Positions 3,644 to 63,650 of a DNA stretch of 64,000 nt are shown here, in pieces. Location: sequence record PQ536907.1; one strand, given 5' to 3'. Numbering within the stretch: the stretch's first letter is position 1; each line of letters begins with the position of its first letter. The notes beneath the pieces were generated by a model, which searched no databases, was not told the origin of the DNA, and worked only from the letters and a program-made list of their open reading frames with translations. The position numbers and the translations under genes are program-made. This DNA comes from a phage.

Positions 3644-3666
3644 CATATCCTCTCTAGTGTTTATTC

Positions 3667-3674
3667 TATTTATA
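3667..3674 (-). promoter_or_regulatory. T4 late promoter box TATAAATA upstream of alt, preceded by GC stem-loop (3682-3695)
   Basis: Minus-strand TATAAATAG about 30 nt upstream of alt ATG; hairpin aggcccgaaggcct just upstream. Confidence 0.5.
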
Positions 3675-3695
3675 AAATTAAAGGCCCGAAGGCCT

Positions 3696-3884
3696 TTAAT
3701 AATCTAGTGGTAAGAGAGTACGATATATTTCAAACTTTGGTCCTTTTTCATAGGCATCAAATGTTTCTGTAAATTTATTATAAGCGTATGCATCTACAAA
3801 TTCGAGAATGACTTGTGATACAGAAGTAGAAACATCTCCACCTTCTTTTTGAGCAATGACAATTGTTTCTAAGTAAGCTTTCAT
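3696..3884 (-). CDS. hypothetical protein (62 aa)
   Basis: ORF packed between ligase and alt, stop overlaps ligase start region. Confidence 0.5.
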   Translation of the reverse strand: MKAYLETIVIAQKEGGDVSTSVSQVILEFVDAYAYNKFTETFDAYEKGPKFEIYRTLLPLDY

Positions 3885-5344
3885 AGACCAGTTACCTCAT
3901 GAAAATCACCAAATACATCTTCGAATGTATTAGCTTTAGTTTTATCTTCACGTAAACGAATCGCAATCGGAAGAAATAATTTAACGTAATCAGTGCGGCC
4001 ATCAGATTTTAACCAACCGTTGCATTCGCACTCTAGAATTTTTCCAATATAATAATTTTGGTTTTCCATAATGCGAGTACGGTCAAGCTCATGTGATTTT
4101 ACGCCGGCTTTATCTTTTAAGCCTGAACCAGCATTTACTTTAATTTTTCCACACTCTGATTCAAGAATAAATCCACCTGCTTTAGTAGGGTCTTTACGGT
4201 GAGGATAAATTCCTACAATTTTTAAATCAACATCAATTACTTCTTTAAATTTATAGAGATTTTTTGAACGAGCATTTTCCCATAATCCATCGATATTTTT
4301 GAGAATAATACCTTCAAGACCTTGGTCAATATACTTTTTATAAATTACCTTAGCTTCATCTAGGTTATTTACTACTTGGTTTTCAATTAAAATTACTTTA
4401 TCATAGCCTGATGTCATTTGTTCTAGTTTAGAAAAACGTACATCATATTTTAAACGAAATGCTGGAAGACCGTATATTTCTACCAACGGAACATAATCCC
4501 AGACCTGAAACTTCATGCATTGAGCTTCTTTTTCTGAAATAGTTCCCTTTAAAGATTTATTAGCGATTCCATTAGAAGTAGTACGTGATTCAGCTACTTC
4601 AGCAAACTCTTTAGCTTTACTAATTTCAGGATAAGCATCAAAAAGAAAATCTAGGCCTTCTGGCTCCTTTTTAACTTGCTCATGGTATACCAATTCGCCA
4701 TCAATTAACACACCTTCTGGATGAATCTGGCGGGCTTCAGCGGTCATTTTGATTAACTCTTCCTTAAGAAGATCTAATCCTAGATATTCATTACCAGCTC
4801 GTGATAAAAGACGGACATCATCTAATTCATCACCTCTAACTTCAGCAAAACACCGAGCTCCATCTGCTTTTAATTGTGCAAAGGCTGGAAATTTGATATT
4901 CTTACTAATGCCTTTTTCATCATAAGAACTTGCGAGCATTTGAGGTTGTTCAGGAATTAAACCTGGCCAAACTTTGTTTGCAATAGATACTGAAGCACCA
5001 CATTCAAGGTCTCGCATCATCACTCGACGCAAAACTTCAACATCATCTTTTTTACCATCGGTGATATATCCAGATAATTCCTCAATTGCCGCATTTCCGG
5101 TCAATTTCCGAGTAGCTAACGTGAATTCAATGAAGTCAAGCATATCGGTAAGAGTCAACATTCCAAAACTCTGGGTAGCAATACCCGGTTTAGGCCATTT
5201 CTTGATATAATACTGTAACCCACGAGAATAAGTCAGACGATATACTCGTTTAAGCAATTCATTATCTTTATTCTTTTCAAGAATTGCTTGCTTCTGCTTA
5301 GTTGAACCAATAGATGCTATTTCGTTCAGAATTTTAAGAATCAT
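3881..5344 (-). CDS. 30: ATP-dependent DNA ligase
   Basis: 487 aa, MILKILNEIASIGSTKQKQAILEKNKDNELLKRVYRL... matches recalled T4 DNA ligase; adenylation lysine motif KADGAR. Confidence 0.95.
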   Translation of the reverse strand: MILKILNEIASIGSTKQKQAILEKNKDNELLKRVYRLTYSRGLQYYIKKWPKPGIATQSFGMLTLTDMLDFIEFTLATRKLTGNAAIEELSGYITDGKKDDVEVLRRVMMRDLECGASVSIANKVWPGLIPEQPQMLASSYDEKGISKNIKFPAFAQLKADGARCFAEVRGDELDDVRLLSRAGNEYLGLDLLKEELIKMTAEARQIHPEGVLIDGELVYHEQVKKEPEGLDFLFDAYPEISKAKEFAEVAESRTTSNGIANKSLKGTISEKEAQCMKFQVWDYVPLVEIYGLPAFRLKYDVRFSKLEQMTSGYDKVILIENQVVNNLDEAKVIYKKYIDQGLEGIILKNIDGLWENARSKNLYKFKEVIDVDLKIVGIYPHRKDPTKAGGFILESECGKIKVNAGSGLKDKAGVKSHELDRTRIMENQNYYIGKILECECNGWLKSDGRTDYVKLFLPIAIRLREDKTKANTFEDVFGDFHEVTGL

Positions 5345-8055: not shown

Positions 8056-8388
8056 TTATTTTACTACTTTCCAATGCTGCATGTCAAGTTTACCAACTTT
8101 TTTCATCTTCTCAATTAAGCGTTCGGCACGTTGGCGAGCTGTAACATAATGCCATTCGCCTAATTCATTTTGTTCAATTTTTCCAACGATTACTGTATTC
8201 AATTCATAAATCCAACCAGTAAAGAAATTATGAACTTGAATTGTAAAGGTGAAATCTGTTCCCATACCTTCTGTTGTTTCTACTTCAATAATATCACCTT
8301 CAACTGCCATTAAGAACCACATAGTTTCATCATATTTACCATTGAAGCATTTAGTTTTAACTGTAGCGTTCAGATTAATCGTTTTCAT
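8056..8388 (-). CDS. hypothetical protein (110 aa)
   Basis: ORF with SD AAAGGAG upstream; driven by cassette at 8416-8493. Confidence 0.5.
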   Translation of the reverse strand: MKTINLNATVKTKCFNGKYDETMWFLMAVEGDIIEVETTEGMGTDFTFTIQVHNFFTGWIYELNTVIVGKIEQNELGEWHYVTARQRAERLIEKMKKVGKLDMQHWKVVK

Positions 8389-11966: not shown

Positions 11967-13381
<1,415 letters not shown>

Positions 13382-14813: not shown

Positions 14814-16401
<1,588 letters not shown>

Positions 16402-16428
16402 AATAAAATGGGCCTTGCGGCCCACTCC

Positions 16429-17607
16429 TTAAAAGTATTTTTTAAAACTCATCATAACTTTATCATCAACATCATTATCAATCTGCGCTACAAGGTAAGA
16501 TGACAGTTCTACTTCTTGCGGCGCGGATTGAACATTATCAGAATTAAGGTATTCACGAATCCAAGGATATGGATGTTTAACCGGAGCATCGGTAATTGGG
16601 CATGGAAGACCACACTGTTTCATACGAGATACAGTTAAGTAATCAATAAAGCTCCACATGCTATTTGTATTTAATCCAGGAACATCGCCATTTTTAAATA
16701 AATGAACTGCCCAATCTTTTTCTTGGCGGTTAACTTCCATGAAAATATCAACTGCTTCTTGTTCACACTCTTTGGCAATTTTAACCCATTCATCACCATC
16801 CGTGCCAAGTTGAAGTTGACGAATAATATATTGTGTACCTTTAAGATGAAGCTGCTCATCACGTGCAATGAACTTCATAATCTTGGCATTACCTTCCATG
16901 ATTTCCATGTTCTTATGGAAGTTAAAGGTACATGCGAAAGATACATAAAAACGAATAGCTTCCAATGCGTTGATTACGTGTAGGCAGAGGTAAAGAGAGC
17001 GCATTAGTTCACGTTTCCAATACATTTCATGCTCTATGGCATCTTTAATATCATCTTCGTCTGCATTAATTTCTTTTTGGTATTCGATATCAGCTTTAGC
17101 GTTTTCCCAATAACGAGTTTTAATCAGAACATCATCATAATAGCGTCCAATAGATTCGGCTCGTTTCATGATTGCTTCATCTAATACAATCTCATCAAAT
17201 ACCTTTGACGGATCAGTATAAAGATTTCGCATGATATGTGTATATGAACGACTGTGAATAGTTTCACTAAAAGTCCATGTAGCAACCCATGTATCAAGAC
17301 TTGGGTCTGAAATTAACGACATAAGTACAGCAGACGGTGCACGACCCTGAATGCTATCTAGAAGTGATTGATACTTCAGGTTATTAGTAAAAATATCTTG
17401 CTGATATTGAGGAAGCTTGTTAAATTGCGCAGCATCCATCATTAAGTTTACTTCTTCAGGACGCCAGAAAAATGACAACTGCTTTTCGGTTAAATCTTCA
17501 AAAACTTTATGACGTTGAATATCATAACGCGCAATACCAAGGCCTGAACCAAAAAACATAGGTTCTTTTAAAACATCAACTGGATTTGTATTAAAAACTG
17601 TGCTCAT
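16429..17607 (-). CDS. nrdB: ribonucleotide reductase small subunit (uninterrupted)
   Basis: 392-aa continuous ORF with diiron/tyrosyl radical protein features; no intron. Confidence 0.95.
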   Translation of the reverse strand: MSTVFNTNPVDVLKEPMFFGSGLGIARYDIQRHKVFEDLTEKQLSFFWRPEEVNLMMDAAQFNKLPQYQQDIFTNNLKYQSLLDSIQGRAPSAVLMSLISDPSLDTWVATWTFSETIHSRSYTHIMRNLYTDPSKVFDEIVLDEAIMKRAESIGRYYDDVLIKTRYWENAKADIEYQKEINADEDDIKDAIEHEMYWKRELMRSLYLCLHVINALEAIRFYVSFACTFNFHKNMEIMEGNAKIMKFIARDEQLHLKGTQYIIRQLQLGTDGDEWVKIAKECEQEAVDIFMEVNRQEKDWAVHLFKNGDVPGLNTNSMWSFIDYLTVSRMKQCGLPCPITDAPVKHPYPWIREYLNSDNVQSAPQEVELSSYLVAQIDNDVDDKVMMSFKKYF

Positions 17608-17658
17608 AAATTTTCCACTTAGTTAATAGATAGTGACTCGTCCATGAGTCAAATTATA

Positions 17659-20240: not shown

Positions 20241-20457
20241 ATTGTTTTTCCGTTAAAACAGTAATATCGTAGTAACAGTCAGAAGAAGTTTTAACTGTGG
20301 AAATTTTATTGTCAAAATACTCACGAGTCATTTTATGAGTATAGTATTTTTTACCATAAATGGTAATAGGCTGTTCTGGTCCTGGAACTTCTAACTCGCT
20401 TGGGTTAGGAAGTGTAAAAAGAACGACACCAGAAGTATCTTTAAATCGTAAAATCAT
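20194..20457 (-). CDS. hypothetical protein (87 aa; nrdA.2-like)
   Basis: ORF, synteny. Confidence 0.45.
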
Positions 20458-21314
20458 ATTGCCATTTTCCCTTTAATTGCTGGATGCGATTCATAATTTT
20501 CAAGGATAAAATCTTTCGGTTTCATGTATTCAGTTAACCAGTAAAGCTGTGTTTCGGTGTCACAATTTCCAAACTCTATAGGCCAATCAATTTTAAGTTC
20601 ACACAGTTCTTTAGGCTCACGACGTAAAATTTCTTTACATTGCTCAGTATGATTCATATAGATGTGAGTATTACCACCAGAAAATATCAAATCTCCTGGG
20701 ATAAGATTACACATCTTAGCCACAATATGCGTCAAGGCAGCGTACGAGGCAATGTTGAATGGCAAGCCCAAGAAAACATCTACACTTCTTTGGTACCATT
20801 GTAAATCAAGATAACCATTACGCACATTAAACTGATAGAACATATGACAGGGCGGTAATGCCATTTGATTGGTTTCAGCTGGATTCCATGCTGAAACGAT
20901 TTGACGTCGATCAGTTGGTAATTTTTTAATACGATCAATAGTTTCAACTAATTGATCCACACCACCGAAATCACGCCATTGTTTACCGTATATAGGACCA
21001 AGTTCACCACTATGATATCCTAGGTCTTTAGCCTGGTTTTCATAGTTATCGTCCCAAATAGTTTTACCTTGAATAAGACTACCATGAGTGCGAAGACGTA
21101 AATCATTAACATTGGTAGAACCGGAAATAAACCATAGAAGCTCAGCAATACATGCATTCCACGCAAGCTTCTTAGTTGTTACCGCAGGAAAACCTTTAGT
21201 TAAATCCCAGCGTAATTTAGTACCGAACAAAGCAATTGTTCCTGTGCCTGTTCGGTCATCGGTTTCATAACCATTTTCAAAAATGTCTTTAATTAAATCT
21301 TGGTATTGTTTCAT
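20454..21314 (-). CDS. td: thymidylate synthase (uninterrupted)
   Basis: 286-aa continuous ORF; TS active-site region [11 protein letters not shown]; no intron. Confidence 0.95.
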
Positions 21315-21358: not shown

Positions 21359-21706
21359 TCAATACGGTTTAGCATCAAATTTTCTCTCAATTTCAGGCGT
21401 GAAATATAATTCTTTACCGCGTTTGGAAAAGCGACCAATAATATGATAATTATTCTCATCAAACGTGATATTACCAATATCCATAGCTTTCAACCAAATA
21501 TCGATATTTCTATCCAGCTTTATGTCAAAATTCCAATACGGAGAACTATTACCGAAAATACTACAAGCGGATTCAGTGAAACAGCTACTATAAATCTTGT
21601 CTTTAGGAACTACTAATTGGTAGACACCTTTAATAAACTGAGGACCTTGCCATTTTGGCTGTTTCTCGTCTTTTTCTAACAGAATAGGGTAATAATTAAA
21701 ATTCAT
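21359..21706 (-). CDS. hypothetical protein (115 aa) inserted between frd and td
   Basis: ORF fills the 411-bp gap between frd stop (21726) and td start (21314); no recognisable motifs. Confidence 0.5.
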   Translation of the reverse strand: MNFNYYPILLEKDEKQPKWQGPQFIKGVYQLVVPKDKIYSSCFTESACSIFGNSSPYWNFDIKLDRNIDIWLKAMDIGNITFDENNYHIIGRFSKRGKELYFTPEIERKFDAKPY

Positions 21707-21725: not shown

Positions 21726-22546
<821 letters not shown>

Positions 22547-22856: not shown

Positions 22857-23159
22857 TTATTTTTGAATTTTATCGAGCCACTTACCAAGCTTAATCATTT
22901 CTTTAGTAGCCTTTTCCATACTTCTGAACTTGACCAATAGAGGATAGGTATCGACACCCATAACTAAACTGGTTACAAGACTGTGTTCACCCACAAGCCA
23001 TAACGAATACGTTTGAATATCGAGCCCGTAATTTCTGTCTTTATGGACCCGTACACCCATCACTTCAAATTTCTCACTAGCTTTTTCTACCGCATCCAGG
23101 AAATCATCTTTAGTCATATTAGGCCTTAAAAGTTTTTCGCAAAAGTTCAATGATTTCAT
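22857..23159 (-). CDS. hypothetical protein (100 aa; start uncertain)
   Basis: ORF in frd-32 interval; overlaps next ORF so true start may be an internal Met. Confidence 0.45.
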   Translation of the reverse strand: MKSLNFCEKLLRPNMTKDDFLDAVEKASEKFEVMGVRVHKDRNYGLDIQTYSLWLVGEHSLVTSLVMGVDTYPLLVKFRSMEKATKEMIKLGKWLDKIQK

Positions 23160-24825: not shown

Positions 24826-24916
24826 TTTTATTTCCTTTTTAATTTAATTAACAGTTGGTGCTATGACGATGTATGACCTCATAGCTGGTCAGTGAGATAA
24901 TTATAATCTATTTATA
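24826..24916 (-). promoter_or_regulatory. Gene 32 5' leader: AU-rich autoregulatory operator, candidate pseudoknot, and late promoter TATAAATA
   Basis: Minus-strand leader ...ctcactgaccagctatgaggtcatacatcgtcatagcaccaactgttaattaaattaaaaaggaaataaaaATG; TATAAATAG at 24909-24916. Confidence 0.55.
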
Positions 24917-24924
24917 ATAAGCAA

Positions 24925-32920: not shown

Positions 32921-35900
32921 ATGGCTACTTTAAAACAAATACAATTTAAAAGAAGCAAAACCGCAGGTGCACGTCCTGCTGCTTCAGTATTAGCCGAAGG
33001 TGAATTGGCTATAAACTTAAAAGATAGAACACTTTTTACTAAAGATGATACAGGAAATATCATTGATTTAAGTATTTCCGCTGGCGGTAATATCAGTGGA
33101 AATATCACTCAAACTGGTGATTATTTACAAAATGGAACATATAATCTTAATGGAAACCAGTTTGTTTATGCTGGTAAATATATTGAATTCCTGCCTAAAA
33201 CCGCGGGTAATGGTGCTTGGGCAAACCAACATAAAAATAAAGCTCCTATCTTTACCGATTTGAGTTCAACTACTTCTACTTCAGAATACCATCCGCTAAT
33301 TAAACAACGCTATAAAGATGGAACTTTTTCTGTTGGTACGTTAGTAAATGAAGGAAGTTTTAAAATTCAATATATCAATGAATCTGGTGATTCAAAATAT
33401 TGGACTTTTAATCGAAACGGTAGTTTTATTGTAGATAATGGCAATATTAAAGTTCGTGCTGGTAATATTTCCGCTTCAGGCAATATTAATTCAGCTACTG
33501 GGATGGTTTCTGCTCCACAGATTAATACAAAAACCATAGTTTTTAATACAAAAGCATTCGGACAATATGATTCGCAGTCATTAGTTCAATATGTTTATCC
33601 TGGAACAGGTGAAACAAACGGAATCAATTACCTTCGCAAATTCCGTGCTAAATCTGGTGGTACAATTTATCATGAATTAGCTTCTGCGCAAACCGGAAAA
33701 AGTGATGAACTTTCTTGGTGGACTGGTAATACAGCGGTTAATAAACAAATGGGCCTTCGCAATGATGGGTCTTTAGTACTACGACGTTCACTTGCAATTG
33801 GTACAATTACAACAGATGAAAACATCAATAACTACGGTTCCACTGGAGCAATGGGCAAATGTTATATAGTTATCGGTGATGCATCAACGGGTTTATCATA
33901 CAAAAAAACTGGGGTATATGACTTAGTTGCTAGTGGTCTTTCTGTAGCATCTATTACTCCTGATAGTTTCCGTAGTACGCGCAAAGCGATTTTTGGACGC
34001 TCGGAAGACCAAGGTGGTACGTGGATTCTTCCTGGTCAAAACGCAGCTCTTCTTTCAGTTCATACTGAAGTTGACCAAAACAATAATGGAGATGGTCAGA
34101 CACATATTGGCTATAATAGTAATGGTAAATTTTATCATTATTTTAGAGGCAGAGGAAGAATGGCCATTGGAATGGCCGAAGGACTTATTGTTGAACCAGG
34201 AATTTTAGATATTAAAACTGGTTCAAATACATTAAGTTTGCGTGCTGATGGTACCGTCGCTTCTGTTCAAACATTAAAGCTTAATAATGGATTATATTTT
34301 AATAGTGATGGAACTAACGCTTCTCTAATTTTTAAAGCAGCTTCAGGTATTGATGGTACTAAACAAATACTTTGGGAAGGTGGTACTCGTGCTGGGCAGA
34401 ATAAGAGCTATGTAACTGCTAAAGCTTGGGGAAATTCATTTAATTCATCTGGCGATCGTAATCGTGAAACGGTTTTTGAAGTATCAGATGGACAAGGATA
34501 TTATTTTTATGCTCAACGTGTAGCTCCTGCACCAGGTTCAACAACTGGAGTAGTTCAATTTAGAGTTGCTGGAGCATTATTAACTTCTGGTGGCATTACA
34601 TCATCCGGTTCTATTGTTACTGAATCTAGTTTAGTTGCTAATAATGGATTATCTGTAAATGGTCAAGCTAAATTTGGTGGAACAGCAGATGCATTAAGAA
34701 TTTGGAATGCTGAATACGGCGCAATTTTCCGTCGTTCAGAAGCATCATTACATATTATCCCGACTCCTAAAGATGCTGGTGAAAGTGGTGGAATAAGTAA
34801 TCTCCGCCCGCTAAGTATTAGTCTTAATAATGGTATGGTACAAATGCGCCATTCTGTTACGTTAGGCGATGATGGCACTGGCGGTAATATGATTACTGTG
34901 GACAACGATAACAAACGTGTTGTTGTTGCTAGTAATAGTCGTATTGCTCCTAATTTCAGAATGCAATTAGGACAATCATCTTATATTGATGTAGAATGTA
35001 CTGATGCTGCTCGCCCAGCCGGTGCAGGTTCATTTGCATCCCAGAATGACGCAAACGTAAGAGCTCCAATTTATATGAATATAGAGCGTACTGCTGCTTC
35101 TGAATATATTCCAATTGTTAAACAGCGGTATGTAAATGGTGATAGTACTTATTCTATTGGCACCTTAATTTCTCAAGGAGACTTTCGCGTTCATTATCAC
35201 CAGGGTACTAGTACTACCGGTACTGATTTAAGCTGGGAATTCCGTCGCAATGGTGATTTCCGCGCGGCAGGTAAAATTATTGCCGGTGCTGCTACTTTTG
35301 GCACTGATGGTAATATTACTGGTGGTTCAGGAAACTTTGCCAACTTAAACAGCACAATTGAATCACTTAAAACTGATATTGTTTCAAGTTATCCTATTGG
35401 GGCTCCTATTCCATGGCCAACGGATACTCCTCCTGACGGTTACGCTATTATGGAAGGCCAGACCTTTGATAAGTCTGCGTATCCAAAGCTAGCTGTTGCA
35501 TATCCTAGTGGCGTTATTCCGGATATGCGCGGGCAAACTATTAAAGGTAAACCGAGTGGTCGTAATGTATTAAGCGCGGAAGCTGATGGTATTAAGTCTC
35601 ATACCCATGGAGCATCTGCATCCAATACAGATTTAGGTACTAAAACTACATCAAGCTTTGATTATGGCACTAAGACCTCTTCAAGTTTTGACTATGGTAC
35701 TAAAACCAGTAATACCACAGGTAACCACTCTCATACTGTAAGCGGTACTACGAGTTCTGCTGGTGCACACCAACATGCGCGCTCAGGTCCTCAGTTACAA
35801 GCCGGCATACCCAATAACATATTCTATGACGGATATAATACTGTAGGTGCAAACGCCAACGCTAAAATCACCGGATCTGTGAGCGGTGCTACTGCAGGGT

Positions 35901-36145
35901 CAAATATAGCCAAAACTTCTTCAGACGGTGCTCATACTCATACTTGGTCTGGTACTACAAGCACTACAGGTAACCATGCTCACACAGTAGGTATTGGTGC
36001 TCATACCCATACTGTAGGTATCGGTGCTCATACCCACACGGTAGCAATTGGCTCGCATGGTCATACTATCACTGTAAATAGTACAGGTAATACAGAAAAC
36101 ACGGTTAAAAACATCGCTTTTAACTATATCGTTCGTTTAGCATAA
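32921..36145 (+). CDS. 37: gp37 long tail fibre distal subunit (receptor-binding tip)
   Basis: 1074 aa; C-terminus ...[11 protein letters not shown]; His-box repeats [14 protein letters not shown]; T4-type, with the chaperone gp38 downstream. Confidence 0.9.
35597..36075 (+). repeat. His-rich repeat region of gp37 tip (HxH boxes; GTKT.SSFDY and GAHTHTVGI tandem repeats)
   Basis: Direct nucleotide and amino-acid tandem repeats in the C-terminal domain. Confidence 0.6.
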
Positions 36146-36172: not shown

Positions 36173-36724
36173 ATGAAAATTTATCATTATTATTTTGACA
36201 CTAAAGAATTTTATAAAGAAGAAAATTATAAACCAATTAAAGGATTAGGTCTTCCTGCACATTCAACAACTAAAAAACCTTTAGAACCTAAAGAAGGATA
36301 TGCGGTTGTATTTGATGAAAGAATTCAAGATTGGATTTATGAAGAAGACCATCGCGGCAAACGAGCATGGACTTTTAATAAAGAAGAAATTTTTATAAGT
36401 GACATTGGAAGCCCGGTTGGTATAACCTTTGATGAGCCCGGCGAATTTGATATATGGACTGATGACGGTTGGAAAGAAGACGAAACATATAAACGCGTTT
36501 TAATTCGCAATAGAAAAATTGAAGAATTATACAAAGAATTCCAAGTTTTAAATAATATGATTGAAGCTTCTGTCGCGAATAAAAAGGAAAAATTCTATTA
36601 TAAAAACCTTAAGCGGTTCTTTGCTCTTTTAGAAAAGCATGAGCATTTAGGTGGTGAATTCCCTTCATGGCCTGAAAAAGAACGGAAACCTTGGTATAAG
36701 CGTTTATTCAAGCATTACGTATAA
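36173..36724 (+). CDS. 38: gp38 tail fibre assembly chaperone (T4-type)
   Basis: 183 aa, MKIYHYYFDTKEFYKEENYKPIKGLGL... matches recalled T4 gp38. Confidence 0.9.
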   Translation: MKIYHYYFDTKEFYKEENYKPIKGLGLPAHSTTKKPLEPKEGYAVVFDERIQDWIYEEDHRGKRAWTFNKEEIFISDIGSPVGITFDEPGEFDIWTDDGWKEDETYKRVLIRNRKIEELYKEFQVLNNMIEASVANKKEKFYYKNLKRFFALLEKHEHLGGEFPSWPEKERKPWYKRLFKHYV

Positions 36725-42037: not shown

Positions 42038-42193
42038 TCAACTATTTTTAGAACCAATGTACGCGAATAATGATAAAATCGCTAATACGCCCTGAGCTGA
42101 TGCTTGCAAAAATACTGAAGTTTCTCCGGTTATTACTGTTCCGATGCATAAAAAGAACCAACAGAAAAAGGCTATACCGTGAACAAATTTCAT
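42038..42193 (-). CDS. ac: probable Ac (acridine sensitivity) small membrane protein, 51 aa
   Basis: Manual translation MKFVHGIAFFCWFFLCIGTVITGETSVFLQASAQGVLAILSLFAYIGSKNS; 51 aa, immediately upstream (in coordinate) of stp as in T4. Confidence 0.5.
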   Translation of the reverse strand: MKFVHGIAFFCWFFLCIGTVITGETSVFLQASAQGVLAILSLFAYIGSKNS

Positions 42194-43692: not shown

Positions 43693-43956
43693 TCATAGTT
43701 CAATCTCAACGATTTCCAGGTGTTTTTGTTTTATTGCCTTTTTAACACAATCATGGACTAAATATGACCATGAATCATTATATTCTCCATTAACTAATCG
43801 TTGGAGATCTTCACGTGATGATAAGTAAGGTTGATCTGATTCCCATTTTGATAAAAATACTGCAGTAAAAATATCTCCTTCACCTGTAGTTGAAGTCGTA
43901 AATGCAATAAATTCACCGGTAATTTTATGTTTAGCGTAATAAAATTTAAATTTCAT
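43693..43956 (-). CDS. hypothetical protein (87 aa from MKFKFYYAKHK...)
   Basis: SD GGAGGAG upstream of internal ATG; promoter at 43984-44013. Confidence 0.45.
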   Translation of the reverse strand: MKFKFYYAKHKITGEFIAFTTSTTGEGDIFTAVFLSKWESDQPYLSSREDLQRLVNGEYNDSWSYLVHDCVKKAIKQKHLEIVEIEL

Positions 43957-43983
43957 TTTTACTCCTCCGTAGCTGATAGTTGT

Positions 43984-44038
43984 ATAGTACCACGGTCCTT
44001 GTGGTATGTAAACCATTTTGTGAAATTTTTTTTTTTTT
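43984..44038 (-). promoter_or_regulatory. Early promoter (-35 GTTTACA, -10 TACTAT) with upstream A13 tract
   Basis: GTTTACA 44007-44013; 17-nt spacer; TACTAT 43984-43989; 13-nt homopolymer 44026-44038 directly after the denB stop. Confidence 0.5.
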
Positions 44039-44594
44039 AAATGGAAAGATACCATCCGTTGTAGTTGCTTTTTCTTACAACCTTACGAAGGTCTTCTCTG
44101 TCACCGATGAACTTCGGAGTGTACTGGATGACACCTGGATGAATTTCTTTAGTGTTGAATATAATTATACAGTCAGCGACTTGATGATTTAGAATGGGCC
44201 CTAGATTTATTCCAGAACCGTATGGATACTCTCCGCTGCATCCTGTTGTTACAGAAATCCAACGTGAGTCAGTTTGGTGTGTCTTAACTTCTACACGAAG
44301 CCCGCAGTATCTTGGATGCGCCAATACATCCCATGCGTATGTATACGGGTCATTAACATCCTCTTGGCCTTTATTAACATACCCGCTTAACCAATCTGCT
44401 ACAAAAAATTCTGCGTACACAGCGATACGGCATCTTTCGATAACTTCTGCTTTATCCTGGTTCGGGTTTTGTTTTAAAGAGTATCTTGCTGTATCAGCAA
44501 TTTTGACCTTCATTTCACTAGTCAAGTCACTGTTCGATAGGGTAAATGTCGGAATCTGAAATAGTCTCTGTAAACCCGGATTCGTTTTCTGCAT
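44037..44594 (-). CDS. denB: endonuclease IV
   Basis: 185 aa; position adjacent to rIIB; matches recalled T4 EndoIV. Confidence 0.85.
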   Translation of the reverse strand: MQKTNPGLQRLFQIPTFTLSNSDLTSEMKVKIADTARYSLKQNPNQDKAEVIERCRIAVYAEFFVADWLSGYVNKGQEDVNDPYTYAWDVLAHPRYCGLRVEVKTHQTDSRWISVTTGCSGEYPYGSGINLGPILNHQVADCIIIFNTKEIHPGVIQYTPKFIGDREDLRKVVRKSNYNGWYLSI

Positions 44595-44884: not shown

Positions 44885-45823
44885 TTATTTAAATTGTTCA
44901 GTAACGTCTTCAACTACTTCGTATTGGCAGGTACGCATTTTAGCATCGTTGTAATCAATCGGAATTGATACTACATCACGTGGATGTACTTTAACTTTTA
45001 CAACTCGGCTGGTTGAACTGCCAAAGTGACGAATATAAGATTTAGAACACACATGCAGACCACGAGAACAAGTTTGTGTATCATCGTCATTCACACGAGT
45101 ACGCGGCATTTTAACTACTTTACCAGGACTGTTATCAAAGGTGTTTGAGTGACAGTCAAAGTAGTTGTCACGAACTACTTTCCAAGCATAGAAGTAACCA
45201 TCTTCTGTAATTTCAATATCGTTTGCTACCAAGAAATCAAAGAGTCGAGATACCGCTTTCTGGCTTGGGTTTTCCAGCAGATTTTCCAAGAACGGAAAAT
45301 AAAATTCAAAGTTTTCACCTTTTTCCATCGAATCGAGAATACGATCAACTAAACCAGACCGTAATTCGATATTTTGATAGAACAAGCTTCCGCCTTCAAT
45401 TCGAACATCGCCGGAAATATATTTTTCAACAGCGCGACGAACATTAATTTTTTGCGCAGCTTCTTCCAGCTTATCTGCTACAAGCAGATTAAGAATTTCC
45501 TGGAAGTTTGAATGAGTATTAGGAGTTGCGTTATAAGTTACACCGTCAACAGTAATTGAAATGAATTTTTTAGATGCATTCCAAATAATGTCAGATTTAG
45601 CAACTGGAGCAATAACTGCATCGCTATTAACTTTAACTGTAATATCACCGCTAATAGTAACTTTAGGGCGTTTAGCTTCTTCAGCATTTTTCAAAACACG
45701 ACGAATTGTGTCAACCGATACACCTTGCCAATCAGCCAATTCCTGTTGGGTGTAATTACCACTTGAATACAGCTTAACAATTTCAGCTTGTTCGTTTTTG
45801 GTCAGGCATTTAATATTGTACAT
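44885..45823 (-). CDS. rIIB: rIIB membrane-associated protein
   Basis: 312 aa, MYNIKCLTKNEQAEIVKLYSSGNYTQQELADW... Confidence 0.95.
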   Translation of the reverse strand: MYNIKCLTKNEQAEIVKLYSSGNYTQQELADWQGVSVDTIRRVLKNAEEAKRPKVTISGDITVKVNSDAVIAPVAKSDIIWNASKKFISITVDGVTYNATPNTHSNFQEILNLLVADKLEEAAQKINVRRAVEKYISGDVRIEGGSLFYQNIELRSGLVDRILDSMEKGENFEFYFPFLENLLENPSQKAVSRLFDFLVANDIEITEDGYFYAWKVVRDNYFDCHSNTFDNSPGKVVKMPRTRVNDDDTQTCSRGLHVCSKSYIRHFGSSTSRVVKVKVHPRDVVSIPIDYNDAKMRTCQYEVVEDVTEQFK

Positions 45824-48280: not shown

Positions 48281-50098
48281 CTACTGGCTCATCCATTCTT
48301 TACGAAGGTCAGCATTATCTCCCATGAGCATTTCAAAAAGCTCTTTCCAGTTCTCAGGAAGTTTAACAACATCATATACTGGATTTTGAATCATCTCACG
48401 ATATTCAGATTTTTCCAAAGAGCCAAGTCCTTTAATATAACGGATGCTATGTTTAGGTAGAGCATCTTTGGCACTCTCATATTCAGCGACTGTATAAAAC
48501 CATTCTTGTTTTTTACCGACCTGAGCGATGATTACCGGAGTTTTGACAAAGCGAATTCGTCCTTGCTCAAACAATTCTGGCCAATTACTAAAAAACCCGA
48601 GCAGAGAAGGATAAATGCTTCCTAGACCATCATGGTCAGCATCAGTCATAATAGCAATATTGCGATAATTCAAGTTTTCAGCCTTTTCACCAAGAACTAG
48701 ACCAGTGATTGCGCAAATATCAAATAGTTCTTTGTTTTTAAGCATATCAGCATATGACATACCCCAACTGTTGAGAACTTTACCACGCAATGGATAACCA
48801 CCATGAAGTTCTTTATCACGAACATCAATAAGATATCCGATAGCCGAATCACCCTCAGTCAGGAAAAGAGTAGTGTCAGCATCTTTACCACAAAGATTCG
48901 CTTTGATATGTTTATGAACTTTAGCTTTAGAAGCCTTTTTAGCTGCTTTAGTTTCAGCTGCTTTTTCTGCTGCCAATTTACGGGCCAAGGCAGCTTCAAT
49001 AATTGGCATCAAAATAGCTTCATTATTTAGAATAGCGCGTGAAATCTTTTTAGCATCAAGCTGAATATGACTACGAATTTCGCCAAATGGAGAAGTCAAA
49101 CGCTCTTTAGTTTGAGAATCAAATCGCATGTTTTTCATATCACGAACAAACATAACGATAGTCAAACATTCTTTAACACGTGCTTTAGTTACATCAATTT
49201 TGAACTTACGTTTGATTTGTGGAATAAGGTCTTCACAAATATCATCCATAACACAGTCAATGTGATGGCCACCATTCTTAGTGTGAATGTTATTCACGTA
49301 AGTTAATTGACGAAATCCATCCGGTGAACGACCAACCGCAATAGAACAATTTTCTTGTTCTTGAACAATAGCATGTTCATCATACTGTCGTGCATATTTC
49401 TTAAAATTGCCCTGAACCTTTTTACCATTAAAGGTAAATTGAATATCAGGATAAACAACAGCAAGTGTCTGGAGACGATCTAGTGTAATGTCAAGATAAA
49501 CTTGGGACAGCTCATTAGTTTCAAATGACATAAAATCTGGAATGAAAGTAACACGAGTTCCTTTCCATTTTCCAGGAATAGTTTCCCAGGATTTATTTTC
49601 CATGCCATTTGAACAACGAACTACAATATTATTTTGACCATCGCCAGTTTCACCGACAAACATCACAGAAAAAATGTTAGTTAAACTAGAACCAACACCA
49701 TTCATACCACCGGTGACACGTTCTTTATCATCACCAAAGTTACCACCCGCTTTTGGAATAGTCCAAGCAGCAACTGGACCAGGAATTTCTTCACCGGTAG
49801 GTGTTTTAACCATCGCTTGTGGAATACCACGACCGTTATCTTCAACTGTTACTTGATTGTTTTTAATAGTAACATTAATTTTATTTGCGAATTTAAACTT
49901 AGTACGAATACCTTCATCGACTGAGTTATCGATAATTTCATCAATAAGCTTAACAAGACCAGGTACATACTGAACACTTTCCCATTTACCAAACAGAAAG
50001 CGCTCATGCATTTCATTAGCAGAAGAGCCAATGTACATGCCACTACGCTTTTTGATATGTTCAATATCGCTCAGAATTTTAATTTCATTCTTAATCAT
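48281..50098 (-). CDS. 39: DNA topoisomerase II large subunit (GyrB-like), unsplit form
   Basis: 605 aa from MIKNEIK...; continuous through ...NIAIMTDADHDGLGSIYPSLLGFF..., covering what T4 encodes as gp39 plus gp60. Confidence 0.9.
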   Translation of the reverse strand: MIKNEIKILSDIEHIKKRSGMYIGSSANEMHERFLFGKWESVQYVPGLVKLIDEIIDNSVDEGIRTKFKFANKINVTIKNNQVTVEDNGRGIPQAMVKTPTGEEIPGPVAAWTIPKAGGNFGDDKERVTGGMNGVGSSLTNIFSVMFVGETGDGQNNIVVRCSNGMENKSWETIPGKWKGTRVTFIPDFMSFETNELSQVYLDITLDRLQTLAVVYPDIQFTFNGKKVQGNFKKYARQYDEHAIVQEQENCSIAVGRSPDGFRQLTYVNNIHTKNGGHHIDCVMDDICEDLIPQIKRKFKIDVTKARVKECLTIVMFVRDMKNMRFDSQTKERLTSPFGEIRSHIQLDAKKISRAILNNEAILMPIIEAALARKLAAEKAAETKAAKKASKAKVHKHIKANLCGKDADTTLFLTEGDSAIGYLIDVRDKELHGGYPLRGKVLNSWGMSYADMLKNKELFDICAITGLVLGEKAENLNYRNIAIMTDADHDGLGSIYPSLLGFFSNWPELFEQGRIRFVKTPVIIAQVGKKQEWFYTVAEYESAKDALPKHSIRYIKGLGSLEKSEYREMIQNPVYDVVKLPENWKELFEMLMGDNADLRKEWMSQ

Positions 50099-50167
50099 CA
50101 CTTATCCTCGTTTGGTTTCGGGAATATTATACTCCGGTAATCATAAAGCTAAAGGCCCGAAGGCCTT

Positions 50168-50437
50168 TTATTTAAAACGAATAGTTGAATCCTTAAAGAA
50201 CAGCCCAGAACATACTGTTCCTTCTACTTTCTGCCCGGTAGGTCCAATAGCACGAAATCCAGTATGTTGGAAATCATTTTCAGAGCAACCGAACCAGTTA
50301 TATCCAGTGATTTCAATATTAGTAAAACCGCTTGAAGATAAAACTTTGGTTGCATTATCAGCATCAGTACATCCTACTAAAGATACTGCTAATACTAATG
50401 CTGCAATAGAACGATTAATATATTTCATAATTTTCAC
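50168..50437 (-). CDS. putative lipoprotein (89 aa)
   Basis: Signal peptide with lipobox LVGC. Confidence 0.5.
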   Translation of the reverse strand: MKIMKYINRSIAALVLAVSLVGCTDADNATKVLSSSGFTNIEITGYNWFGCSENDFQHTGFRAIGPTGQKVEGTVCSGLFFKDSTIRFK

Positions 50438-50805
50438 TTAAATTTAATGGCTTGAAGAAGACTAATAATTCTCAAGCGACTTCTTTCATCTTTAACTGTA
50501 AAAGAAAGAGGGTCACCAGATTTCATAGTAATAGTACATTCAAAATCAAAATCTTCGGGAACTTCTTCGAATAGGTCAAATTCTTCATCATAAATTAGAA
50601 CATTACTCTGAAAACTGTGAAGAATTTTTCCATCATTTCCAGATGCTGTACTAATCATTGTAACATTATTACCTTTCATATCTTCAACGATAAATTCGCT
50701 TGTAGATATTACATTACTAATAGAACCATTCCTATAAATAGCAGAAAATAGATATTTCTTTTCTTCACCTTCGCGAATACGATACTTCTTACCGATTTTA
50801 AACAT
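50434..50805 (-). CDS. hypothetical protein (123 aa)
   Basis: ORF. Confidence 0.5.
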   Translation of the reverse strand: MFKIGKKYRIREGEEKKYLFSAIYRNGSISNVISTSEFIVEDMKGNNVTMISTASGNDGKILHSFQSNVLIYDEEFDLFEEVPEDFDFECTITMKSGDPLSFTVKDERSRLRIISLLQAIKFK

Positions 50806-54603: not shown

Positions 54604-54841
54604 AAAGATAGCTAATTTCGCCTAAAACGTAATCATTGATTGTAACAGTTTTCACTTCACCACAAAAGAATTCTAACGCAATTAAATCTCGTTCAATTTC
54701 TTCTAATTGAAGCATCAACTTACTAGATTCAATTTTTACAGTTTCACGATTTTTACCATGAGCAATTTCATAAATTTCGCTCACTTTATCCTGAAGAAGA
54801 TAAAACTGATCTTTAGTTATTTCCACGAATAGCTTCCTCAA
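54581..54841 (-). CDS. hypothetical protein (86 aa), member of tandem paralog trio
   Basis: ORF. Confidence 0.5.
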   Translation of the reverse strand: MRKLFVEITKDQFYLLQDKVSEIYEIAHGKNRETVKIESSKLMLQLEEIERDLIALEFFCGEVKTVTINDYVLGEISYLYEAIIND

Positions 54842-55073
54842 ATTTAATTAGTAATTTACAGACACTTTCATCTAGTGTAATTACCGTATCTGTATTACTG
54901 TGATATGATTGTTTTTCAATTCGTTTAATTGCTAATATAGTATCACTTATAAGATAAAGCTTATGAAGGAGCTCAGCTCCTGTTACCATAACATTAAGAT
55001 TATCTTGCTTATTAGTATGCTTCCTTATACCATCTATTAGACGATTTAAATATTTTGAATTGATGTTAATCAT
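54813..55073 (-). CDS. hypothetical protein (86 aa), member of tandem paralog trio
   Basis: ORF. Confidence 0.5.
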   Translation of the reverse strand: MININSKYLNRLIDGIRKHTNKQDNLNVMVTGAELLHKLYLISDTILAIKRIEKQSYHSNTDTVITLDESVCKLLIKFEEAIRGNN

Positions 55074-59887: not shown

Positions 59888-60380
59888 TTGTTTTACCTAA
59901 AACAATAGTAGGAGCATCGTCAAATTCATGAATTTTTAGCAATTTTGGATTTAAATTATTCCATACATAATAAATAAAGTATGATAAAGCATCTTCACTC
60001 GCAATTATAAATTTATTTCCTTCATTTATTTTCCAGTCATATACTGAATCGTACGAATAAAAAGATAAAGGATTACCATTATATTGTTCTGCGCTAACAT
60101 TAATGTATTCGGATTTAGTAAATGCTTCAATTGCTCTAAACGGACTATTTGGCACAGTTTCAATAATTCCGATCTTTTTAAGTTTTATTTCAACATCTTC
60201 TGGAACTGGCATTGAAACGAAATTTTCTACGAGATACATAGGGTTACAATAACCCTTATCAATCACTACGGCTACAGTAATTGGAACATCTTTAGCAAAC
60301 AACATGCTATTACTGCTAATATACATTTCAAACAAAATCGCTTCCATAATTTTCCTCAATCGCAAGATGTAGATGAACAA
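59862..60380 (-). CDS. hypothetical protein (172 aa)
   Basis: ORF in modB-soc interval. Confidence 0.5.
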
Positions 60381-60850
60381 CCAGAATCACAAGAACTTCC
60401 ACATGAATCACCAGTCCAAGAACTAACAGCCGTGACTGTTATAATAGGAGCGGTATCGATATAGCTTTCTGAACGTCTTGAATCTAAATGTTCTTTTAAC
60501 TTTTTAGAATTCAATGGAAGCGCACCTGCACCAACATTACCAGCTTTTTCTGGTTGACGAATAATTTCTTCCATCGTATCGTCGCTCGCATAAACATTAG
60601 TATCATATGAATCAGAACTAGACTGTGTATTAGATGATGTAGTAGGTACTGACCAGCGCCAAGGATTTTTATAATATTCTTGGGCTTCTTCATAAGTCAT
60701 AGTAACTGCTTCTACTGTTCCATCTCCCATATAAACATACTCAACTACAGTTAAAGGAAGGTAGTCATTTGAAATAGGAACTACACCTTCTCCCGGAGTT
60801 GTAGAGAAAAAATCTGTAAAGAAATTTTTAAACCAATTAAAGATAAACAT
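60356..60850 (-). CDS. hypothetical protein (164 aa) with Ser/Cys-rich C-terminus
   Basis: C-terminal [20 protein letters not shown]. Confidence 0.5.
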
Positions 60851-61062
60851 TACAAAAAGCCTCTTTGAAATTCGACTCTTTGAAATCCACCCCAGTCAGT
60901 ATATCGCATTTCAGCATTGAACTCGACTGAACCATCTGCATGCATCATGAATGAATGCGTGACGACATCACAATCCCAGCTTTTCATACCCCATTTATCA
61001 GAGATAGCTTTATCAAGAACCTTCTGAAGGTCTTCATTTGGTTTAATCCAACGATTTAACAT
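60850..61062 (-). CDS. hypothetical protein (70 aa)
   Basis: ORF driven by cassette at 61089-61151. Confidence 0.5.
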   Translation of the reverse strand: MLNRWIKPNEDLQKVLDKAISDKWGMKSWDCDVVTHSFMMHADGSVEFNAEMRYTDWGGFQRVEFQRGFL

Positions 61063-61088: not shown

Positions 61089-61151
61089 ATTATACCACAC
61101 TCATTTTGACATGTAAACCATAAAATGAAAAAAGGAATCCCGAAGGATTCC
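61089..61151 (-). promoter_or_regulatory. PeSL-like cassette: soc terminator stem-loop plus early promoter (-35 GTTTACA, -10 TATAAT)
   Basis: Hairpin ggaatcc-cgaa-ggattcc (61134-61151); GTTTACA 61112-61118; 17-nt spacer; TATAAT 61089-61094. Confidence 0.6.
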
Positions 61152-61160
61152 TTAAATTAT

Positions 61161-61418
61161 TTAACCACCTACACCAGGTGTAGGTGTAACAGTCCAAAGA
61201 CCTTCATTAGCAGTGATCCATTCAGTACGCTGATTTTCTTCATATACTGTAGAATATGCTGCTTTTTCAGAAGGGAATGTCTGATAATGAGCACCAGAAA
61301 TTTTGTGAACATCAGAATAAAGAGGGAAAGCTACAGAAATTTCTTTACCCTGAATTGTACCACCATCAACTGCTTGGTCAAATGTTTTAATATTAACATA
61401 ACCGCGAGTACTAGCCAT
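61161..61418 (-). CDS. soc: Soc small outer capsid protein
   Basis: MASTRGYVNIKTFDQ...; matches recalled T4 Soc. Confidence 0.9.
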   Translation of the reverse strand: MASTRGYVNIKTFDQAVDGGTIQGKEISVAFPLYSDVHKISGAHYQTFPSEKAAYSTVYEENQRTEWITANEGLWTVTPTPGVGG

Positions 61419-61434: not shown

Positions 61435-61644
61435 TTAAATTACATGATTATTTATAATAAATTCTCGCGGAACGTTAAAATACCCGATTTTAGTTAATAT
61501 AACAACATCACCGTTAATAATTACCGGAGAATAATCTTCTGGAGCATTAAATTTCCAATGGGCTCTAATATTATATCCATCAGAACCAAATGCTCGAGTA
61601 GCCGGTCTCCCGGCTTTTTGCCACGCGTAGAAATCAAATTTCAT
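61435..61644 (-). CDS. hypothetical protein (69 aa)
   Basis: ORF in soc-56 interval. Confidence 0.45.
   Translation of the reverse strand: MKFDFYAWQKAGRPATRAFGSDGYNIRAHWKFNAPEDYSPVIINGDVVILTKIGYFNVPREFIINNHVI
61449..61456 (-). promoter_or_regulatory. T4 late promoter TATAAATA for soc
   Basis: Minus-strand TATAAATAAT about 30 nt upstream of the soc ATG. Confidence 0.6.
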
Positions 61645-61835
61645 TTTGAATGATCTATAATTAATTTTAAATCTTCTTCACTGACAAAAATTTCGTCAGG
61701 ACCTTCTATAACTTCAACCATACGAAGTTGATTAGTTAAGAGCTCACATACGAGCTCCTTGTTATAATCTTTAAATAGCTGGTCAATACGTTTCTTATGG
61801 GCTTTCTTAAGCTGACGCTTATTTAAACGAGCCAT
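61641..61835 (-). CDS. hypothetical protein (64 aa)
   Basis: ORF in soc-56 interval. Confidence 0.45.
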   Translation of the reverse strand: MARLNKRQLKKAHKKRIDQLFKDYNKELVCELLTNQLRMVEVIEGPDEIFVSEEDLKLIIDHSK

Positions 61836-62353
61836 TAATAACCTCGGTCTTGACGAGCGAAGTTTTCAGCATTTTTCAGGTAATAAAGTTTAAAGATTTC
61901 TTCAGCTGACATTCCAAGAGCAATAAATTTATTCATGAAAAAATGAAATTGGTCAATAAGTTCAAATTTAATTTCAAGCTGATCTTCGGGAGATAAATCT
62001 TGAATTTTCTTGGATTGCATTTCAGAATAACGTTTCTTCCAAGGTTTCCATACAGCAGAAGCTTCTTTTTCGCCATTACTCATACCACCGAGAGAAGTAT
62101 ATAGCTCGCGAGTTTCGTCTGCGATATAATCGTCTTGGTTTCGCAGCCAAGCAAGAACTTCTCCTGCAGTTTCAAGTGAATCAGGATGACGATTTGTTTC
62201 TGGTTTATCATTAGCCAAACGAATCTGTAAATGCCGCTGCATATCAAGCATAACCTGCAGTGGGTCAATATTGTGCATAATATTCTCAGCATATGCACGA
62301 TTTGCTTTATCAACACCTTCGATCAAATGAGCACATTCATTAAAGTAAGCCAT
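61835..62353 (-). CDS. 56: dCTP pyrophosphatase (dCTPase/dUTPase, MazG-like)
   Basis: About 172 aa from internal Met MAYFNECAHLIEGV...; candidate MotA box plus TATAAT upstream. Confidence 0.9.
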   Translation of the reverse strand: MAYFNECAHLIEGVDKANRAYAENIMHNIDPLQVMLDMQRHLQIRLANDKPETNRHPDSLETAGEVLAWLRNQDDYIADETRELYTSLGGMSNGEKEASAVWKPWKKRYSEMQSKKIQDLSPEDQLEIKFELIDQFHFFMNKFIALGMSAEEIFKLYYLKNAENFARQDRGY

Positions 62354-62424
62354 TATTTTTCCTTTCAATTCATGGGTTAGTAGATTAATTATACAATAAA
62401 TATATAAAGCAATAAGGAGGACAT

Positions 62425-62625
62425 ATGGTACAAAAATTAATGGCACTTGTTAATGCCATAAAAGGTAATAAAAAACGTATAGCTTTTACTATTTCTGCTA
62501 TGGTAGGAATTTTACTCTGGAACTTTATTCTATCACCTATTGCAATTGCACATGGTATTAATATTCCAGTAGTTACTATTGATACATTCGTAGATCTAGC
62601 ATTTGCTTTAGTTGGGTTAATTTAA
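62425..62625 (+). CDS. small hydrophobic protein (66 aa) on the opposite strand between 56 and 61
   Basis: Strong SD AAGGAGG 5 nt upstream of ATG; two hydrophobic segments; ORF exactly fills the 56-61 gap; stop overlaps gene 61 stop. Confidence 0.45.
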   Translation: MVQKLMALVNAIKGNKKRIAFTISAMVGILLWNFILSPIAIAHGINIPVVTIDTFVDLAFALVGLI

Positions 62626-63650
62626 ATCTTGGCATATTTAGATAGCCGCATTTTAGCCATCAACCCCTGGGCAATATTATTTTTCATATATTCCATAATT
62701 TGTTCAGGGGTTGCACCTTCCTTTCTAATCATATCATTGACATCTTTTGATTTCCAGGGAGATTTATCCCAAAACATAACCCTTTCTCCTGCATCAACTA
62801 ATTTAGTCATTCGTTTGATAGTGTCAGGGTGACGAGGTTCATTATCTAAAACCCACACTCGTCTATCTTTAAATGGAACAACTTCTAGGTCTAATTGACC
62901 GCCAGTAATGGCTATACCATTTTCAATAAAAAGTGAATCTATAGGTCCTTCTAGAACATATACATCACCATCTTTAACTCGTTCGACTCCATATATTTTT
63001 GTTGCCTCAGGATAAGCTTTAATGGTGATATATTTTTGAGGAGCATCTTTCTTTAATGCACGTCCTTGAAAAGACTCAGCTTTTCCGTTAGCATTATAAA
63101 TTGGAATAACAAGACGAGGCTCAGAAATTTCCTTTTTGTATGTTCCTGGTGCTATGCTATTAACTAATTTAGGCCATTCGGTTGTAAACCAAAGATATTT
63201 CCATTTATCCTTTGGAATACAACGAGCTTTTACATATTTTATAATTGGATGGTCTTCCGCCAGTTTATCTAATCTAACACATGACGGAAGAGATTTAATT
63301 ATTTTCTTCTCAGGTTGTTTAGGAAGTTCTTTAGGTTTTTCTACTGGACGACTTTTACCTTTTTCTTTTCTTATTTCAAAGATATACTCACGATATAAAT
63401 CAGGTTCAAACTCCTTTAAATATATTCCGATTGGTGCATGATAGTTACAGTTATAACAATGAATATTTCCTTCATTATTATCACCATAATACCATCCACG
63501 AGCTTTATTCTGATCGGTTTTTGAATCTCCACAAACAGGGCATCTAAACCGCAATTTAAAAGTTGAACTATTATTTACTTGTGTGAATTTAGGTAAATGA
63601 GCTAATGCACGATACGCAAACTCATTATCAATCCAAGGTATTGATGACAT
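62622..63650 (-). CDS. 61: DNA primase
   Basis: 342 aa; zinc ribbon CPVCGD...CYNC and Toprim region EGPIDSLF; matches recalled T4 gp61. Confidence 0.95.
   Translation of the reverse strand: MSSIPWIDNEFAYRALAHLPKFTQVNNSSTFKLRFRCPVCGDSKTDQNKARGWYYGDNNEGNIHCYNCNYHAPIGIYLKEFEPDLYREYIFEIRKEKGKSRPVEKPKELPKQPEKKIIKSLPSCVRLDKLAEDHPIIKYVKARCIPKDKWKYLWFTTEWPKLVNSIAPGTYKKEISEPRLVIPIYNANGKAESFQGRALKKDAPQKYITIKAYPEATKIYGVERVKDGDVYVLEGPIDSLFIENGIAITGGQLDLEVVPFKDRRVWVLDNEPRHPDTIKRMTKLVDAGERVMFWDKSPWKSKDVNDMIRKEGATPEQIMEYMKNNIAQGLMAKMRLSKYAKI

Follow-up and report, generated by a model that had tools for sequence, protein, structure and literature searches.

The soc–56 interval of a T4-like phage holds soc.1 and soc.2 at the site of T4 segF

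In phage T4 (NC_000866), the interval between soc and gene 56 carries segF (15606–16280). The DNA analysed here, a 64,000-nucleotide stretch of phage record PQ536907.1 (the window), runs colinear with T4, starting at about 123 kb of the T4 record, crossing its end and start and reaching about 19 kb, mostly with 94–97% nucleotide identity. The question raised by this locus is what stands between soc and 56 in the window and how the lack of segF can be explained. A preliminary description, which correctly gave the position of segF in T4, claimed that the interval contains only two small open reading frames (ORFs), of 69 and 64 aa, with no nuclease motif, and that every T4 mobile element expected in the window is missing.

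The genes located between 60.8 and 63.7 kb are oriented in the minus direction throughout, with the exception of dam.1, a small plus-strand ORF between genes 56 and 61. The gene mrh.2 (60850–61062, −), with 59% amino acid identity to T4, neighbors soc (61161–61418, −), which encodes the small outer capsid protein of 85 aa (Pfam Soc, PF16855, E = 2.7e-45). This is a T2-type allele, and the Soc protein is 96.5% identical to that encoded by T2 soc' and 82% identical to T4 Soc. The sizes and coordinates of the two small ORFs were described exactly. The first of them, soc.1 (61435–61644, −), encodes a 69-aa protein of the DUF7422 family (PF24197, E = 4.2e-46; phrog_5773). The second, soc.2 (61641–61835, −), encodes a 64-aa protein with a basic helical N-terminus (phrog_5782, E = 8.4e-38) and bears the name “soc.2” in GenBank record AF374619. 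Gene 56 (61835–62353, −), also a T2-type allele, encodes a dCTPase/dUTPase of 172 aa recognized with Pfam and PHROGs (phrog_173, E = 2.4e-44). The product of dam.1 (62425–62625, +; 66 aa; phrog_2024) is probably a membrane protein, and gene 61 (62622–63650, −) encodes gp61, which is 99.4% identical to T4 gp61.

The stop codon of gene 56 overlaps the ATG of soc.2 (TAATG), and the stop codon of soc.2 overlaps the ATG of soc.1 (ATGA). An exact string match upstream of gene 56 (62388–62411, −) revealed a middle-promoter-like element composed of the MotA box TGCTTTA, 11 nt and TATAAT; the equivalent positions of AF374619 are annotated as a “middle promoter motif box” and a “Pribnow box”. The T4-type late promoter motif for soc, TATAAATA, is located within the 3′ end of soc.1 (61449–61456, −; exact motif match), and AF374619 has a “late promoter” annotation at the equivalent position. 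This motif, which marks the left boundary of the interval, is common to the window and to the two relatives checked, T4 and AR1. Downstream of soc, a terminator scan detected an intrinsic terminator, AAGGAATCCTTCGGGATTCCTT, followed by a T-run (61132–61153, −), and a terminator is annotated at the homologous position in the record of phage GiZh. Because of the overlapping starts and stops, the MotA/−10 element, the late promoter within soc.1 and the terminator after soc, genes 56, soc.2 and soc.1 are predicted to form a single early/middle, translationally coupled transcript, and soc would be expressed late.

A blastn comparison of the window with NC_000866 delimited a segment without DNA homology to T4 (61457–61871). 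It corresponds to T4 positions 15611–16306, which comprise segF and the 3′-terminal 37 bp of gene 56, so that 415 bp are found here in place of 696 bp. On the left, the break coincides exactly with TATAAATA, homology to T4 stopping at 61456, and on the right it lies 37 bp within the 3′ end of gene 56, where homology resumes at 61872. No DNA homology to T4 segF was detected in the soc–56 interval with blastn. Searches with Pfam, PHROGs, NCBIfam and PADLOC found no GIY-YIG or HNH domain in either ORF, which bears out the claim that they lack a nuclease motif; for soc.2, Pfam gave no significant family. Both proteins, of 69 and 64 aa, fall short of the length of a free-standing GIY-YIG endonuclease (an ORF of about 200–260 aa).

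The whole 64-kb window was searched using tblastn with 14 T4 queries (SegA, SegF, SegG, I-TevI, I-TevII, I-TevIII, MobA to MobE, gp60.1, NrdB.1 and Dam). For the eleven queries that are T4 homing endonucleases or remnants of them, there was no significant match anywhere in the 64 kb. The preliminary description had proposed such a search with SegF, MobE, I-TevI and I-TevIII, and no seg or mob homologue was found within the window. The alignment of SegF residues 47–157 with positions 3202–2867 (E = 0.019) lies in frame inside a T4-like alt gene and is attributed to chance, given the 14 queries. The only other alignments with E-values below 1, those of I-TevI residues 53–88 with positions 8298–8182 (E = 0.44) and of MobB residues 36–94 with positions 45139–45315 (E = 0.71), are not significant.

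A megablast search with the locus pointed to AF374619, described as Enterobacteria phage T2 dCTPase (56), soc.2, soc.1 and soc', with 95.1% nucleotide identity over 1314 bp. As in the window, the T2 genes are arranged in the order 56/soc.2/soc.1/soc on one strand; the late promoter again lies in the 3′ end of soc.1, and 56 is preceded by a middle promoter. AF374619 is reportedly the record that accompanied the SegF study of Belle, Landthaler and Shub (2002). A passage of PMC5931544 cites Belle et al. (2002) for segF and the T2 locus. The soc.1 gene of the T2 record differs in a 1-nt deletion (alignment column 828), which shortens the product to 40 aa, while soc.1 of the window is intact. An intact 69-aa soc.1 is also present in GiZh and in most other genomes, and the 1-nt difference could reflect either a genuine frameshift in T2 or a mistake in early sequencing.

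The corresponding T4 region (15331–16785) resembles the window in its flanking genes (mrh.2, soc, 56 and 61), in the soc late promoter, in the ribosome-binding region and in the direction of transcription. In contrast, T4 possesses the 224-aa GIY-YIG endonuclease SegF where the window has soc.1 and soc.2, a gene 56 allele with 73.6% nucleotide identity to that of the window, and dam between 56 and 61. The characterization of the structural and replication proteins as near-identical to those of T4 is thus accurate for gp61 and in line with the 94–97% nucleotide identity of most of the window, but it does not apply to gp56 (69% amino acid identity) or to Soc (82%).

The comparison leads to the conclusion that the interval is, with high confidence, the endonuclease-free “T2-type” allele of the T-even soc–56 locus. 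Since the adjacent gene 56 is of the T2 type and not the diverged one found together with segF, segF would never have invaded the locus in this lineage, or any invasion would have been replaced wholesale. The layout with soc.1 and soc.2 is already known, having been named and published for phage T2, and it is also the commonest one among T4 relatives; hence, the finding is correct but ordinary.

The frequency of the layout was estimated in a collection of 50,697 phage records. The full interval with soc.1 and soc.2 (at least 80% coverage) was found in 205 of them. Ninety-five records in the search matched it at an identity of at least 99%, one of them at 100%, and the 401-bp interval is 100% identical in phage AdolfPortmann. 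The arrangement with soc.1 and soc.2 is therefore the majority state among Tequatrovirus genomes, with about 205 genomes versus about 50 that contain segF.

Other contents of the interval were found between the same flanking genes. In phage AR1, with soc and 56 as in the window, the interval is almost empty (1285–1352 of the extracted locus), keeping about 20 nt of a degenerate soc.2 5′ end and 36 nt from the 3′ end of soc.1. As these remnants of both genes are retained, the empty interval of AR1 is a deletion derivative. Phage vB_EcoM_G10400 carries soc.2 and an unrelated ORF of 57 aa within the same soc and 56 flanks. Yersinia phage PYPS2T encodes a 278-aa HNH endonuclease in the soc–56 interval (660–1496 of the extracted locus) and a second, MobE-like homing endonuclease on the other side of 56, between 56 and dam.1 (1974–2657). 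Gene 56 is thus flanked by two landing sites for homing endonuclease genes (HEGs), as PYPS2T carries one such gene on each side. The soc–56 interval is a polymorphic hot spot whose commonest variant is the one in the window.

Homologues of soc.1 were found on T4-like phage contigs only, about 165–170 kb in size, and the same is true of all 83 homologues of soc.2, which share the invariant N-terminus MxRLNKRQLKKAxKK. The strongly conserved positions indicate that soc.1 and soc.2 are real genes. The AlphaFold2 models are of low confidence (pLDDT of 52 for soc.1 with an alignment of 8 sequences and 61 for soc.2 with 17 sequences). The matches of the family profiles to PDB sequences appear to be due to chance, both for soc.1 (E = 0.4) and for soc.2, where 18 residues were aligned with helices of a designed TIM barrel (E = 0.0025). 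A Cas2 match of soc.2 (15.8 bits) is below the cutoff of 24.5 bits and is likewise attributed to chance. Our best guess for the two proteins is an accessory early/middle role that the phage can dispense with.

There is a small chance that the pair means more than this. In that case, soc.2 and soc.1 would constitute a selected accessory module whose small early/middle products act, e.g., on host functions or together with the dCTPase/nucleotide-precursor complex, or they would have been the earlier residents of a hot spot in which at least five alternative cassettes are swapped between the conserved 3′ end of 56 and the soc late promoter. The prevalence of soc.1 and soc.2 over segF speaks in favor of this possibility, as do the conservation of both ORFs and their presumed translational coupling to gene 56, and the “empty” sites of the AR1 type, which are deletion derivatives of the module.

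A role of soc.1 and soc.2 as proteins of the capsid or virion is very improbable, despite the names found in databases (“head protein”, “virion structural protein” and “putative small outer capsid protein”), the PHROG category “head and packaging” and the position of the two genes next to soc. Neither protein could be aligned with Soc in BLASTP at E ≤ 100, and the only match to the Pfam Soc model in the window is 61161–61418, i.e. soc itself, with none in soc.1 or soc.2. In addition, both ORFs are situated upstream of the soc late promoter and appear to be coupled to the early/middle gene 56, unlike the structural genes of T4. On sequence comparison, soc.1 and soc.2 are neither nucleases nor relatives of Soc. 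As they have no similarity to Soc, the capsid-type names were probably propagated from the names of the loci, and database entries widely mislabel the two proteins as belonging to the capsid.

The T2-type reading of the interval extends to gene 56. The gene 56 of the window is identical to that of T2 at 97.3% of nucleotides and 98.8% of amino acids; the respective values for T4 are 73.6% and 69.2%. In the collection of 50,697 records, 51 contain the T4-type allele (at least 90% identity to T4), and 440 contain a gene 56 with 60–80% identity to T4, so the alleles are bimodal. T4 segF was found in 50 records of the same collection (46 of them at an identity of at least 95%). The contiguous T4-type segF–56 junction is present in 47 records, and the remaining matches of the junction consist of gene 56 alone at 60–80% identity. 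Because of this pattern and the bimodality of the alleles, segF appears to travel with its own diverged, T4-type allele of gene 56, as judged from the counts and the junction search rather than from a per-genome table.

Gene 56 of the window differs from that of T2 at 14 of 519 positions, and positions 283–365 of the gene are identical. The SegF cleavage site of T2, which we take to lie some 210 bp upstream of the point where segF is inserted, would fall inside this identical block. Judging by its sequence, the present gene 56 belongs to the T2-type allele class, i.e. the type targeted by SegF, and conservation of the target is suggested by the 97.3% nucleotide identity to T2. Table 1 of PMC2988022 gives soc/56 as the insertion site of segF and gene 56 as its target, and PMC2330249 summarizes that, in crosses of T4 with T2L, gene 56 of the latter is excluded owing to SegF. 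By analogy with the published T4 × T2 crosses, SegF would be expected to cut the present gene 56 if a phage with segF infected the same cell. Using the T4 copy as the template, repair could then replace 56, soc.2 and soc.1 with T4 56 and segF, resulting in localized marker exclusion.

The same data bear on the possibility of a secondary loss, in which an ancestor had segF that was later deleted, leaving two ORFs as fragments. HEGs do decay in T-even phages, as mobA and I-TevIII are annotated as defective in T4, and the AR1 remnants demonstrate that deletions happen at the soc–56 locus. However, the 415 bp do not resemble segF at either the DNA or the protein level, the best match being a 34-aa chance alignment (E = 9.9). 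The two ORFs, which T2 shares, are intact and each represents a separate conserved family, and the flanking gene 56 is of the T2 type rather than the allele accompanying segF. The high similarity of gp56 to T2 and not to T4, although gp61 is almost identical to that of T4, also argues against a deletion from a T4-type locus. A secondary loss of segF is very improbable and can be considered effectively refuted.

No exact match to the window was found in the databases; compared in 25-kb pieces, the closest genomes reach 96–98% identity, and a different genome ranks first from piece to piece. An artefact, either an assembly gap or a T4 laboratory deletion strain, has nothing specific in its favor and a negligible probability, since the same interval occurs at 96–100% identity in about 200 independent phage genomes, including AdolfPortmann, and the window differs from T4 by 3–6% throughout and is mosaic relative to all database genomes. 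For the same reasons, the window can be assigned to a distinct natural Tequatrovirus and, in practical terms, classed as one with a T2-type soc–56 locus.

The endonuclease-free state attributed to the soc–56 locus is shared by the other sites of T4 mobile elements in the window. Alignment and tblastn demonstrated that all six T4 mobile elements of the colinear stretch are absent within the 64 kb, as the preliminary description had stated for segF, the introns, mobE and the gene 60 insertion; segG and mobA, which it did not list, are missing as well. The nrdB intron with I-TevIII (T4 138458–139057) has no counterpart at the intron-less junction (16931–16934, −), and nrdB is an uninterrupted ORF of 392 aa (16429–17607). 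The spacer between nrdA and nrdB is 51 bp long (17608–17658, −) and lacks nrdB.1 and mobE (T4 139720–140419). The td intron with I-TevI (T4 143544–144564) is likewise absent from the td junction (20762–20767, −), the gene being an uninterrupted ORF of 286 aa (20454–21314). The absence of the introns, mobE and the gene 60 insertion is evident from the intact nrdB and td ORFs and from the blastn gaps relative to T4. The segG gene (T4 147919–148541) is missing from the 99-bp spacer between genes 32 and 59 (24826–24924, −). The gene 60 bypass, 60.1 and mobA (T4 2794–3910) are missing at a junction within gene 39 (48616–48681, −), which encodes the large subunit of topoisomerase as one uninterrupted ORF of 606 aa (48281–50101, −). 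The T4 segment 2794–3910, with the 50-nt translational bypass of gene 60, 60.1 and mobA, corresponds to 65 bp in the window. In a co-infection with T4, loss of the soc–56 locus and of the five other HEG-free sites of the window by marker exclusion would be predicted.

The stretches of the window that are absent from T4 were also screened for endonucleases. They contain eight or nine small ORFs, all assigned to PHROG families of unknown function, with no significant Pfam match to a nuclease. Small ORFs without a T4 DNA counterpart are located on the minus strand at 13061–13381, 21359–21706, 22304–22546, 22857–23159, 42038–42193, 43693–44055, 50434–50805 and 54813–55073. An example of an ORF absent from T4 is one of 115 aa between td and frd.

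This picture matches the published view. Table 5 of PMC2993671 gives HEG counts of 15 for T4, 1 for T2 and none for RB26 and RB69, and a passage of PMC2988022 refers to T4, with its 15 HEGs, as an “oddity”. T2, RB26 and RB69 are, like the phage of the window, close to T4 without its introns and free-standing endonuclease genes, a comparison that covers 64 kb of the present phage. According to a passage of PMC5931544, the T4 seg, mob and I-Tev genes are also absent from phage vB_EcoM-UFV13. Endonuclease-poor close relatives are the rule and T4 is unusually rich, so that the window reproduces a textbook contrast: T4 abounds in homing endonuclease genes, and its T2-like relatives mostly lack them.

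Several other features distinguish the window from T4. The dam gene (T4 16846–17625, between 56 and 61) is absent at 62393–62414, with dam.1 kept, and the tblastn search with T4 Dam found nothing in the whole 64-kb window. The dam-less 56–61 junction is common, being present in 294 of the 506 phage records that matched. To the left of the segF site, divergence from T4 continues through soc, mrh.2 and mrh.1; the mrh.1 gene (60356–60850, −) encodes 164 aa versus 113 aa in T4, with a Ser/Cys-rich C-terminal tail and a match to Pfam DUF7206.

Two tandem alt-like genes of ADP-ribosyltransferases are located at the beginning of the window (2–1546, − and 1550–3646, −). One of the products is 70% identical to T4 Alt, and the second, a paralogue cut by the window start, is 44% identical; at the position of the second alt, T4 retains nothing but the remnants alt.-1 and alt.-2. 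Gene 37 of the distal tail fibre (32921–36145, +) encodes 1074 aa versus 1026 aa in T4 and is strongly diverged from T4 between 33076 and 36002 (68–74% nucleotide identity), which is ordinary host-range mosaicism. Gene 38, located downstream of 37 (36173–36724; 183 aa), is of the T4 type.
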